From the NCBI GenBank assembly GCA_963736115.1, contig CAVTNR010000002.1, positions 1 through 64,000 of the forward strand: 64,000 nt of DNA, in the 5' to 3' direction. Positions 13,674 through 48,597 of this stretch are shown here, one piece after another; the stretch's first letter is position 1, and each line of letters opens with the position of its first letter. Below the pieces are notes generated by a model. That model saw only the letters and a list, made by a program, of their open reading frames with translations. It was not told where the DNA came from and did no database searches. This stretch comes from an uncultured bacterium. GTDB taxonomy: Bacteria; Zhuqueibacterota; QNDG01; DTFT01. Both the position numbers and the translations under genes were made by a program.

Positions 13674-13773
13674 AATAATATTCGTAAAAACCGGACGATT
13701 GTTCGTTGTGATTTGATTTTCAAGAAATAACAGGCGTTGCCGATTGCATCATGGATTTGCGGTTATTTATACG

Positions 13774-13900
13774 ATGTGCGACACACCTTTAGGCGTGTCG
13801 CATGTTTAAAACCTCCCGGAGGCTTCAAGCCTCCGGGAGGTTTTGATTCCCGCCTCTTAACCGGAACCTCCCGCGGGTTGTTGAAAACCCGCGGGAGGTT
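13774..13900. repeat. Cluster of three REP-like palindromes
   Basis: TGCGACAC..GTGTCGCA; AAAACCTCCCGGAGGC-TTCAA-GCCTCCGGGAGGTTTT; AACCTCCCGCGGGTT..AACCCGCGGGAGGTT. Confidence 0.7.
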
Positions 13901-13930
13901 GTCATCCTGTTACCCGCAATCTGTATCAAC

Positions 13931-14180
13931 GAATCTGTCAGCGAGCGTATTCCCCGCGGCTTGCCTTCAACCAGAAGGCATAGAATCGATTGGTCCCGCG
14001 AAGCGGGGCCGCGGGGTAAGCGAGCGAATATCAGATGACTCTTCTCTACAGATAGAAGATTCGCAGCAAAGCGGCACCAAGTTATTTGATTTGTTCACTA
14101 TTGAAGGCCCGCCGCTTGTCTTCAACAAGAAGACATATAATAGCTTGATCCCGCGTAGCGGGCGGCGGGGAGCTTCAATC
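13931..14180 (-). mobile_element. GATT-flanked two-hairpin MITE, copy A, carrying three 44-45-bp micro-element insertions
   Basis: Aligns with 28938-29098 and 48390-48597 (GATTGAAGC...AATCTTC...TCGCTCGC...GGGGAAT...CAGATTC). Confidence 0.8.
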
Positions 14181-14225
14181 ACCCTATTCATCCAACCTTA
14201 TCCGCGCCGGAGGTCCGTGCGCCGT

Positions 14226-14268
14226 CCTTCACTAAAAAAATATAATTGATTGGTCCCGCTTTGCGGGG
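14226..14268 (-). repeat. Solo 43-bp micro-element inserted in a CACGGA-type repeat
   Basis: Minus strand reads CCCCGCAAAGCGGGACCAA-TCAATTATATTTTTTTAG-TGAAGG; removal restores GCCTACGGC. Confidence 0.65.
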
Positions 14269-14313
14269 AGGCGTCCGTGTTCCATCTTTTCCATTGAACC
14301 GGGACGAAACAAA

Positions 14314-15629
<1,316 letters not shown>

Positions 15630-28930: not shown

Positions 28931-29800
28931 ATGAACGGATTGAAGCGCCCCGCCGCAAGCGGCGGGAAATCTTCTAACTGTAGAAAAAAGACATCCGATA
29001 ATCGCTCGCATCCCCCGAGGCCCGCTACGCGGGATCAAGCAACTGTATTTGTGAATGATTGCAGACAAGCCGCGGGGAATACGCTCGCTGACAGATTCAC
29101 CGTATTCGCCCACAGGGGCGCGGCCGGAACCGAACCCGAGAATACGCTCCGCTCCTTCCGCAAAGCGCTGGAAACCGGAGCGGAATGGGTGGAACTCGAC
29201 GTTCATTCGGTCGAGGGCGTGCCTGTCGTATTTCACGACAACCGGCTCAACCGCCGGACTAATGGATCGGGCCTGATTTCCCGGCGGTCACTGGAACATG
29301 TCCGCTCCCTGGACGCGGGCCTGGGAGAACGCATTCCCCTTCTGGACGAGGTTCTCTCCCTGCTGGCCGGCAAGGCGGGTGTGAACATCGAGCTCAAAGG
29401 ACGCCGGACCGCGGAGCCGGTTGCCGCGCTTCTTGCGGACCGCCTCTCCGAAGGAGTCTGCACCCCGGACCGGCTGATCGTTTCTTCATTCGAGGCGGCC
29501 GAACTTTCGCGTTTCGGCCGCATCATGCCGCAACTCCGCCTGGGCGCGCTGTTCCGTAAAGCCCCTGCGGACCCCGGCGCAGTTCTGCCAGGTCAAGGCC
29601 TCTTTTCCCTGCACCTGCACAAACGGGCCATCTCCGCTGAAATCGTCAACCGCGCCCACGGCCGTGGCCTGCAAGTTTTCGTTTACACGGTGAACGATCC
29701 TACGGACGCGGCCCGGCTCAAGACCATGGGCGTGGACGGCGTGTTCACCGACTTTCCCGAACGTTTTCCCCGCACCCGGGGCTCAGCCCCTCAGGACTGA
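28931..29800 (+). CDS. Glycerophosphodiester phosphodiesterase (UgpQ/GlpQ family) with a 52-aa MITE-derived N-terminal insert
   Basis: AHRG, PENTL, ELDVH, NIELK, YTVND and GVFTDFP motifs; AGGAG RBS before ATG 28931. Confidence 0.9.
   Translation: MNGLKRPAASGGKSSNCRKKTSDNRSHPPRPATRDQATVFVNDCRQAAGNTLADRFTVFAHRGAAGTEPENTLRSFRKALETGAEWVELDVHSVEGVPVVFHDNRLNRRTNGSGLISRRSLEHVRSLDAGLGERIPLLDEVLSLLAGKAGVNIELKGRRTAEPVAALLADRLSEGVCTPDRLIVSSFEAAELSRFGRIMPQLRLGALFRKAPADPGAVLPGQGLFSLHLHKRAISAEIVNRAHGRGLQVFVYTVNDPTDAARLKTMGVDGVFTDFPERFPRTRGSAPQD
28938..29098 (+). mobile_element. GATT-flanked MITE, copy B (one micro-element at 29021-29065), in frame in the phosphodiesterase gene
   Basis: Homology to copies A and C; removing 156 bp restores ATG AAC GGA TTC ACC. 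Confidence 0.8.
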
Positions 29801-48100: not shown

Positions 48101-48395
48101 CCGCATCGAGTTCGGCTTCGATGACGGGGAAGGCGGCCGCGTGTTCTTCGTCCGGGACAACGGCATCGGCTTGGACATGAAATACGCGGACAAACTGTTC
48201 AAGCCGTTCCAGCGCCTGCAGTCGGAGTTCGAAGGAACGGGTATCGGGCTGTCCACGGTCGCCCGGATCATCCGCCGGCACAACGGCCGCATCTGGGTCG
48301 AGGGAAAACCCGATGTGGGCGCCGTCTTCTTTTTCACGCTGGACAATCCCGCGCACGCGGAAGACGGAAATCCGGTCCGGCCGCAATCGGATTGA
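45102..48395 (+). CDS. Sensor histidine kinase with Reg_prop beta-propellers, Y_Y_Y domain, HisKA and HATPase
   Basis: Repeated ED..G.LWIGT..GGL.R.D blades; ATYTRLPPGNY; PPFWKT; SHDLRSPL; GTGIGL. Confidence 0.92.
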   Translation: MKARKKSVLFLLFGPLCMTFASLAAQTETVRFEKLSIEQGLSQSSVTSICQDRKGFLWFGTYEGVNRYDGYEFRIYRHNPDDPNSLIQNVIKDLKEDRSGTLWIATDGGLDRYDRQADRFIHYVHDPGDSASLSHNRVRNVFEDGQGTLWVATDNGLNRYDPESDRFVRYSNDPADSNSLCDNKVREIYEDRQGNLWIGTDAGLDCLDRKTGRFRHYRNVPGDPNSISGNHVISFGEDRNGGFWIGTWDKGLNRLDRRTGKFKRYMADPRNPKSLQYNTVRAIYEDRSGTLWIGTYGGGLERYDRETDGFTHFRSNPDDPISLSSDAVWCIAEDASGILWIGTDFGGISKYDRRKNQFEYHRSGSGTAGGRYRNAVNALYADPDDRGRILWIGTWGGGLCRLDRRSGEQVCYKNDPYDPESISNDVIRCIDKDRDGHLWIGTDVGLNRLDRRTGRFERFYCDPGNPNTLDYDNIFSLCEDSRGNLWVGSYYGGLNRFDRKSRRFIRYRTGSADSGAFNDNIVWSIKEDRAGRIWIGTDAGGLNRFDPATGRFAHYKRIPGNPNSISDNKVLSIHEDAAGILWLGTPGGLNRLDPADGQWRRYGRQDGLVSDAVQSIAGDPEGYLWIGTTKGLSRFDPRKNTFVNFNANDGLQGDEFSVNSCASAATGEMFFGGINGFNVFFPGRVKLNGFIPPVVLTDFQLFNRSVPVGEPVGGRVILKQSIMETPEISLSHRQNDFSIYYAALSFSAPDRNAYRVRLAGIEDEWNPAGPRRFATYTRLPPGNYVFEVKGSNNDGVWNEKAISLKIRIRPPFWKTAWFILLMSMTGLGLMAAGYINRTGKIKARNRELESRVRERTRQLEEANRELEAFTYSVSHDLRSPLRAMDGFSQAVLDEYGPKLDERGVDYLRRIRRGSQQLGRLIDDLLKLSRLARSEMNFKEIDIGRLAETIATDLRQSDPSRKAEFVIARDAIVHVDPDLLKVMLANLLGNAWKFTSKRPDTRIEFGFDDGEGGRVFFVRDNGIGLDMKYADKLFKPFQRLQSEFEGTGIGLSTVARIIRRHNGRIWVEGKPDVGAVFFFTLDNPAHAEDGNPVRPQSD

Positions 48396-48597
48396 AGCTC
48401 CCCGCCGTCCCGCTGCGCGGGATCAAGCTATTATATTAATAAACGATTGTAGACAAGCGGCGGGTCTTCAATAGTGAACAAGTCAAATAACTTGGTGCCG
48501 CTTTGCGGCGAATCTTCTATCTGTAGTGAAGAAAATATATTATATTCGCTCGCTTACCCCGCCGCAAACGGCGGGGAATGCGCGAGCGATCAGATTC
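48390..48597 (+). mobile_element. GATT-flanked MITE, copy C (micro-elements at 48408-48453 and 48465-48509); supplies the kinase stop codon
   Basis: Inverted homolog of 13931-14180. Confidence 0.8.

Follow-up and report, generated by a model that had tools for sequence, protein, structure and literature searches.

Repetitive extragenic palindromic (REP) sequences and bacterial interspersed mosaic elements (BIMEs) are short GC hairpins that occur in hundreds of intergenic copies and in mosaic arrays, and they are linked to enzymes of the RAYT family (PMC2817692, PMC3333891, PMC3479197). The TnpA-REP enzyme binds to the hairpin of a REP; its cuts fall in single-stranded DNA, at the flanks of hairpins and in linkers, and bases adjacent to the hairpin foot read the cut site (PMC3333891, PMC3479197). 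For the E. coli enzyme, the proposal is that the cut site C^T (a caret marks a cut or junction throughout) is read by two bases of the GTAG tag, and the same paper calls the mechanism of REP propagation unclear (PMC3479197). Cutting and joining of single strands by RAYT enzymes has been observed in vitro (PMC3333891). In the insertion sequence (IS) IS608, guide sequences beside the hairpin foot read the cleavage sites by base pairing (PMC3201880). Here we describe a hairpin unit of 44-46 nucleotides (nt), labelled U, that is present in seven copies in the window, a 64,000-nt stretch of an uncultured bacterium (C2:1-64000 of the assembly of genome G000, which comprises 3.34 Mb in 31 contigs at about 60% G+C and is 87% complete). 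U is an exact unit that is gained or lost without target duplication, and it is apparently an undescribed variant of the REP/BIME-like small palindromic mobile repeats. The literature search returned no description of a U-like unit; motifs are not text-searchable there, and supplementary catalogues of REP families (e.g. PMC3733652) may list a related family.

Like REP and BIME sequences, U leaves its target unduplicated and resides in a genome with RAYT genes. A REP is expected to be high-copy, intergenic and palindromic over 20-40 bp; U has 173 copies, 153 of them intergenic, and is palindromic over 13 of its 44 nt. Unlike a REP, it has a stem of only 5 bp followed by a 31-nt non-palindromic tail, and unlike a REPtron, it flanks no RAYT gene that was examined. 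IS200/IS605 elements recognise hairpins, insert as single strands without duplication and read the cleavage site with a guide. U resembles them in its duplication-free sites at hairpins and in a coupling that looks like guide pairing, but IS608 is described as having two subterminal hairpins and a fixed tetranucleotide target (PMC3201880), whereas the only conserved hairpin of U is terminal and its targets have no fixed word. U behaves like a non-autonomous element of the REP/BIME or IS200/IS605 type, but differs from each family in the features by which its members are recognised. Non-autonomous derivatives of IS200/IS605 elements are termed PATEs. The BOX elements of Streptococcus pneumoniae are composite intergenic repeats with a module of about 45 nt, boxB, in variable number; like U, boxB occurs in zero to several copies, but it is confined to BOX, whereas U has 90 distinct contexts. 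Unlike the classical MITEs derived from DDE transposons, U has ends (CCCGC.. and ..GAAGR) that are not inverted repeats, and it makes no target duplication.

Nesting of REPs in small palindromes and the targeting of REPs by full-length IS were already known. In Thermomicrobium roseum, GTAG-23 REPs lie inside the palindrome CCGSSCC(n3,4)GGSSCGG, of which hundreds are empty (PMC3733652, Di Nocera et al. 2013). U likewise is a small palindromic repeat within GC-rich palindromes that have many empty counterparts in the genome. As that paper describes them, the T. roseum inserts are single or dimeric REPs with a GTAG tag, found in one family of targets, whereas U is untagged, enters many hairpins at a defined bond and nests in itself. 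IS1397, ISKpn1, IS621 and ISPpu9/10 target REPs (PMC1525189, PMC12288879), and their specific insertion into palindromic units is shared with U; these are full-length elements with their own transposase, whereas U is non-coding and 44 nt long. What is new here is the unit, the defined insertion bond in many unrelated hairpins, the self-nesting, and a coupling between bases 15 and 44 of U.

An exact unit gained or lost without target duplication

Read 5' to 3', U consists of a 5-bp GC hairpin with a 3-nt loop, the invariant bases A-Y-C-A-A, about 20 AT-rich nucleotides by which subfamilies are told apart, and the invariant end TTGAAG-R. The seven units that an earlier note had picked out in the window belong to a much larger set. 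A 44-position nhmmer profile of U gave 195 matches in G000 at E≤1 and 173 at E≤0.01, 138 of the latter spanning the profile end to end (56 are 44 nt long, 52 are 45 nt, 19 are 42 nt and 11 have other lengths). A regular expression of the consensus in the earlier note found 104 copies across the genome. With a crude gene call that covers 83% of G000, 153 of the 173 copies are intergenic, and they point with or against the neighbouring gene about equally often (75 same, 76 opposite). The other 20 lie inside open reading frames (ORFs) of this gene call and are either real in-gene insertions or false calls.

Presence and absence of U can be counted in a modular repeat that hosts it. This host repeat, called a 'MITE' in the earlier note, has four slots, and insert length was taken as the sequence between the constant flanks of slots 1-3. 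Slot 1 holds 0 nt in 20 host copies, 44-46 nt (a single insert) in 25 and 89-91 nt (a double one) in three; slot 2 holds 0 nt in 33 and 45-46 nt in eight; slot 3 is empty in 20 and holds 44-45 nt in another 20. Outside the slots, the joined 10+10-nt flanks occur uninterrupted elsewhere in G000 for 41 of the 138 full-length copies.

Three other genomes of the genus, G001, G002 and G003, supply orthologous sites. At C11:86197, G002 is empty (..ggttct^cccgccgttgcc..) and G000 has a 44-nt U at the same bond; in G001 and G003 the unit is present with an enlarged 5' hairpin. At C22:134277, a single small hairpin holds no U in G002, one in G000, two nested copies in G001 and at least three in G003. 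Since the G000 copy and the outer G001 copy there are of different subfamilies, this site was probably entered more than once. The third site, C2:107616, is empty in G001. Target duplication is absent at all three loci. In a survey of 118 U copies from other genomes, 17 could be mapped to G000, and at most of these the difference is a whole host repeat, not U alone. U is very probably a discrete mobile, or at least precisely excisable, element.

Within the window, all seven units claimed in the earlier note are present, each end lying within 1 nt of where it had been placed (Table 1), and the profile scan found no eighth. A relaxed consensus matches seven times in the window against 0.04 expected, and none of 100 dinucleotide-preserving shuffles reaches seven. 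The alternation of filled and empty host hairpins that the note had read also holds, as do the two inverted copies at GGG^GAATC and the one copy in a different repeat, whose junction reads ..GCCTC^ACGGC... In each case excision of U in silico restores an intact hairpin without a target duplication. The joined flank of copy 2 recurs uninterrupted 17 times elsewhere in G000, and copy 4 has a paralogous context at C21:60145. Metagenome contigs from two runs skip exactly 13963-14007 (45 nt), and others skip both 14063-14107 and 14119-14162 (four runs with small word shares). As this is a repeat family, such contigs are paralogous forms or the empty forms of relatives, and not alleles.

Table 1. 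Copies of U and of the host repeat in the window.
Feature	Position	Strand	Setting
U copy 1, C/G type	13964..14007	-	host hairpin 2 of host copy A, 5' arm^CAAG loop
U copy 2, hairpin GCAGC-AAA-GCGGC	14063..14107	+	just outside foot of host hairpin 1: GAAGATTC^U^CCCGCCG
U copy 3, T/A type	14119..14162	-	host hairpin 1 of host copy A, 5' arm^CAAG loop
U copy 4, 42 nt	14226..14267	-	inside another small hairpin repeat, in its loop: ..GGACGCCTC^U^ACGGCGCACGG..
U copy 5, T/A type, end TTGCAGA	29021..29065	+	host hairpin 2 of host copy B, 5' arm^CAAG loop
U copy 6, T/A type, end TTGTAGA, extra 5' T	48409..48453	+	host hairpin 1 of host copy C, 5' arm^CAAG loop
U copy 7, hairpin GCCGC-AAA-GCGGC	48465..48509	-	just outside foot of host hairpin 1, host copy C
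Host repeat copy A	13931..14180	-	slots 1, 2 and 3 all filled
Host repeat copy B	28938..29098	+	hairpin 1 empty (28948-28966), hairpin 2 filled
Host repeat copy C	48390..48597	+	hairpin 1 and slot 2 filled, hairpin 2 empty (48557-48576)

Hairpin targets and the coupling of bases 15 and 44

The sites that U enters were analysed by removing it and folding the joined flanks, for 90 distinct contexts and, as a control, 2000 random intergenic positions. In 32 of the 90 contexts (36%), the junction coincides exactly with the bond between the 5' arm and the loop of a hairpin, against 4.9% of the random positions. Sites of a second class are at the foot of the 5' arm or one base further in (ATTC^U^CCCGCSG, TTCT^U^CCCGCCG). 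Contexts that have no such relation to a hairpin make up 17%, against 47% at random. The base following U is C in 119 of 130 copies. These data show that U lands at junctions of single and double strand on the 5' arm of GC-rich DNA hairpins.

The target hairpins are mutually unrelated. Among them are the two hairpins of the host repeat, two REP families linked to RAYT genes, terminator-like hairpins and other copies of U, and the contexts also include unique sequence. When U enters a resident U at the 5'-arm^loop bond, the result is a tandem-looking array with a period of 37-39 nt (C9:30553, C28:841, and in G003). The 90 distinct flank contexts and the three orthologous sites that are empty in sister genomes bear out the view of the earlier note that U is a hyper-parasite of REP-like hairpins.

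The hairpin of U itself is usually CCCGC-NNN-GCGGG, and its variants are compensated: the arm pairs are CCCGC/GCGGG in 100 cases, CCGGC/GCCGG in 15, GCCGC/GCGGC in five and CCAGC/GCTGG in one. An alignment of 236 distinct copies, 125 from G000 and 111 from loci in other genomes, shows hairpin columns 3 and 11 covarying (CG 211, GC 16). Only the first 13 of the 44 nt are palindromic. A second hairpin (YCTTC..GAAGR) is present in some subfamilies only.

The core between the conserved ends had been called variable. It does differ among copies, but the variation is not free: clustering the tails of the 138 full-length copies gave 27 groups, the three largest of 25, 17 and 14 members. This bears directly on the idea that the core of U holds target information, as in a guide cassette or a repeat/spacer-like unit, an idea that the conserved ends, near-constant length (44-45 nt in 108 of 138) and differing core had suggested. 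An exact match outside U copies was found for one of 116 distinct cores, and that match looks like a weak U that had escaped masking. Because the cores form clusters and almost never recur outside U, a repeat/spacer reading is not supported. The U pattern has no hits in viral contigs, and unlike the units of a CRISPR array, copies of U are dispersed or nested. We regard a cassette of this kind as highly improbable.

The strongest regularity in the alignment links the two ends of the unit. Of its 946 column pairs, 15 and 44 have the highest mutual information (0.768 bit; the runner-up has 0.456), and neither column shares more than 0.173 bit with any third. The pair reads CG in 127 copies, TA in 94, TG in five and CA in three, and the neighbouring bases C16 and G43 are invariant. 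Bases 15 and 44 are Watson-Crick partners in 96.5% of 229 distinct copies, the tips of a tree, whereas 1000 shuffles give a mean of 51% and a maximum of 61.6%. On this tree, built from the other 42 columns, which is weak and makes the counts rough, parsimony places about 30 changes at each of the two columns. Close sequence pairs with a difference at column 15 number 209, and in 179 of these column 44 differs too.

This coupling resembles the pairing between guide and cleavage site in Y1 HUH transposases. A helix of only two base pairs would not hold by itself; stacked on the hairpin, it would draw the ends of U together. By this analogy we infer that U may use the guide logic of Y1 HUH enzymes. 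Two other accounts of the ends were considered and set aside. Base 44 could derive from the target, as in the left-end logic of IS608, but the empty site at C11:86197 leaves no room for it. A crossover within the CCCGC core suits the foot-type sites but fails at the loop-type sites.

Enzyme candidates and rival explanations

The mechanism that we favour runs as follows. A Y1 HUH enzyme (RAYT or IS200-type), supplied in trans, would bind the hairpin of U. The Y-C beside the hairpin foot would pair with the terminal G-R and bring the 3' end to the 5' end, and this pairing would set the cut, much as guide and cleavage site do in IS608. U would then leave and enter as single-stranded DNA. Taken as a whole, the statement that U is a non-autonomous, duplication-free, hairpin-targeting element moved in trans as single-stranded DNA by a Y1 HUH enzyme has, in our estimate, an even chance of being right. 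A bolder version would make U the smallest self-defined HUH-type element so far, in which a 13-nt hairpin and an internal two-base guide suffice for excision and the target is a hairpin geometry and not a sequence word. We put this version forward tentatively, and doubt it rather more than we believe it.

The window contains no candidate enzyme, in line with the view of the earlier note that the enzyme would not be encoded there. Three Y1 ORFs of G000 pass the NCBIfam model REP_Tyr_transpos, at 88.2, 133.9 and 90.9 bits (cut-off 80), and the nearest, the minus-strand ORF at C2:71373-71945, is 7 kb beyond the window. The RAYT on C19 (57396-57902) has orthologues of 70-77% identity in all four genomes of the genus. 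The one on C2 has an 86% orthologue in G001 only and a 34% match in G002, while the one on C17 (75009-75635) has no orthologue in the genus and matches of 32-42% in G031 and G035, of the same phylum, only. The C2 gene (C2:71373-71864; locus L002, C2:71300-72070) lies within a GTAG-tagged REP array, GGTAGCCGCAGCC-TTTA-GGCTGCG, with a GCACCC-TGAA-GGGTGC variant. Six copies of this REP family elsewhere hold in their loop a U with a special CCCG-ATGAA-CGGG hairpin.

Other searches for an enzyme were negative within their scope. Larger elements with the ends of U had been thought of in the earlier note, but no partial or long form was found in G000. The IS200-like Y1 genes of G001, G002, G005 and G026 are without U ends. 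G000 has no match to the reverse transcriptase model RVT_1 or to TnpB-type proteins, and none to Y2 (IS91-type) enzymes, a search whose control was also without any match. Its single IS110-family gene (C14:87546-88628, a frame of 361 codons) lies in a markedly AT-rich, low-GC island that was presumably acquired horizontally. That a RAYT acting in trans moves U is our best guess and not a finding, and for Y1 HUH single-strand chemistry as the means of movement we would put the chance somewhat short of even. What speaks for such chemistry is that U enters hairpins without duplicating the target and that its ends covary like a guide and its cleavage site.

A number of observations weigh against movement by a Y1 HUH enzyme. 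Each of the three G000 RAYT genes has a separate REP family at its flanks, and none of these families is U-like. The 28 Y1 loci compared (85,397 bases from G000, G001, G002, G003, G005, G023 and G026) include none flanked by U; the U profile matches them twice, in both cases at over 1.4 kb from the gene. With Y1 genes in 39 of 41 relatives, their presence does not track that of U, and since G000 is 87% complete, the gene for the enzyme may be missing from the assembly. Unlike REPs, U has no GTAG or CGTC tag but A-Y-C-A 3' of its hairpin, and ..CCGT precedes the hairpin in only 20 of 173 copies. The hairpin of U is at its very 5' end with the putative guide 3' of it, whereas the guides of IS608 and REPs are on the 5' side of the foot. 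On the target side there is no fixed left word, the base before U being C in 44 copies, G in 47, T in 39 and A in none. The strand of U shows no overall bias relative to GC skew (Fisher p = 1.0); loop-type (38 vs 17) and foot-type (32 vs 11) copies are biased in opposite senses because of the orientation of the host repeats, not that of U. Foot-type sites have direct repeats of 3-5 nt flanking U (CCC at C2:107616, CCCGC at C11:86197). Because U and these targets both start with CCCGC, the ends are ambiguous there by up to 5 nt, and loss by slippage deletion is possible at such sites. Finally, all 11 copies examined in G026 and G023 sit in one fixed 95-nt context and not in varied hairpins.

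A rival reading dispenses with a dedicated enzyme. U could be a BIME-like mosaic module that host processes shuffle, namely gene conversion among repeat copies, template switching where hairpins stall replication, and slippage deletion, helped by the similarity of its CCCGC/GCGGG arms to those of the target hairpins. Nearly all targets are indeed GC hairpins with CCCGC-like arms. The direct repeats at foot-type sites fit such shuffling, as does the failure to find a cognate transposase in the 28 Y1 loci, and the slot polymorphism among host-repeat copies could be gene conversion. At loop-type sites, however, microhomology and end ambiguity are no more than 1 nt, yet the ends of U are exact in dozens of unrelated hairpins. 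Copy-choice would not predict that bases 15 and 44 covary while the middle is free, and the sequence and length of U are conserved across three families of the order. We consider shuffling by host processes unlikely, though it is the rival that we take most seriously. Slightly less probable again is movement by another recombinase of hairpin DNA, whether an IS110-type enzyme with its bridge RNA, an integron-type tyrosine recombinase or some other. REPs are known to be specific insertion targets of IS from the IS110 and IS3 families (PMC1525189), and G000 does have one IS110-family gene. The flanks of that gene are unlike the ends of U, however, and a bridge RNA cannot fit in a 44-nt unit. As read from its sequence, U lacks R and L boxes like those of attC.

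U might instead be kept and spread mainly as a sequence of use to the host, bound by a nucleoid protein (IHF, for example) or acting as a small structured RNA. T-type copies (G-ATCAA-GCTA-TTA) come close to the IHF consensus, which we take to be WATCAANNNNTTR. More than half of the copies (132 of the 236 distinct ones) read ACCAA, however. The L linker of E. coli BIME-1 often bears an IHF site (PMC3333891) and would be a parallel. The invariant blocks of U are strongly conserved across families, and in G026 and G023 it is a fixed part of a conserved unit. Against a regulatory role, the orientation of U is unbiased relative to genes, and nesting in hairpins and in U itself is not needed for a regulatory site. 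Rfam 15 gave no gathering-score match in the window, no hit at E≤1 overlaps a U copy, and nine related loci gave one tRNA as the only match. A function would leave the insertion of U unexplained and would complement the other explanations without replacing them; as the main account of U it is improbable.

There are several reasons why U is useful. It is clean material on REP movement, being an exact unit of 44 nt with a defined insertion bond and many filled and empty sites within and between genomes. The 15:44 pair predicts which mutations should kill or restore its activity. U also illustrates that small repeats can build tandem-looking arrays by repeated insertion into their own hairpin, which is relevant to annotators of intergenic repeats and of candidate RNA genes in metagenome-assembled genomes. 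If U is indeed an HUH element that targets geometry, it would be a structure-seeking hyper-parasite of REPs that persists across an order of uncultured bacteria. It would then offer a compact system for a long-unproven step in the movement of REP-like repeats, testable with 44-nt oligonucleotides.

Distribution and neighbouring repeats

A strict U pattern occurs in nine of the 41 genomes searched, and a reversed-pattern control has no match in any of the 41. G000 has 85 matches, the other genomes of the genus have 53, 50 and 34, and the sister genus has one. Four genomes from two other families of the order have four, four, 15 and one; the remaining 32 relatives searched have none. In a collection with one genome per prokaryote species, at least 79 stretches carry the U pattern, all those listed being from metagenome-assembled genomes. 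At locus L082, in another genome, U sits in a hairpin loop as it does in G000.

The fixed 95-nt unit of G026 (loci L023, L025, L033, L043, L047, L051, L081 and L091) and G023 (L020, L055 and L090) consists of an 11-bp AT-rich hairpin, GTTCTTTTCTT-NNN-AAGAAAAGAAC, followed by C, U and CAAAAGAACCGGCCTTTTTGCC. The hairpin was considered as an attC site, but its GTT..AAC order is the reverse of that of attC. In G026 the 95-nt unit lies inside two types of repeats of about 400 nt, upstream of unrelated small ORFs (a GNAT acetyltransferase and DUF6398). These longer repeats contain more conserved blocks (..CCACCCC.., ..ATGCCCACCCC.. and ..CAAAAAGGCC..) with compensated hairpins. They have no match in Rfam, and could be a structured RNA or a cassette boundary of another kind.

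A further family in G000 has a constant, U-like inner core, reading GGGGGTGTCA, a weak hairpin, GGACCAAGC..ATTGAAGG and CCCGNAATCTNTTANCGGGGATCCAGG. It was seen at C8:111157, C8:180339, C8:246174, C22:60761 and C22:61281, and its 5' hairpin is degenerate.

Finally, the surroundings of host copy A hold two observations of their own. Comparison of window positions 13700-14320 with locus L013 (G002:C7) shows that the orthologous stretch between genes in G002 lacks this host copy altogether and has in its place some 600 bp of other sequence, resembling an ORF for a small membrane protein on the opposite strand. Just after the upstream gene, at 13804-13913 of the window, two long hairpins from another repeat family (AACCTCCCGGAGG.. 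and AACCTCCCGCGGG..) stand side by side; both are conserved at the orthologous place in G002. Rfam hits to His_leader at 13780-13913 fall on these neighbouring hairpins below threshold and were taken as chance. Relatives of the 13804-13913 family carry U inside an arm, for example at C15:29632 and C9:69556.

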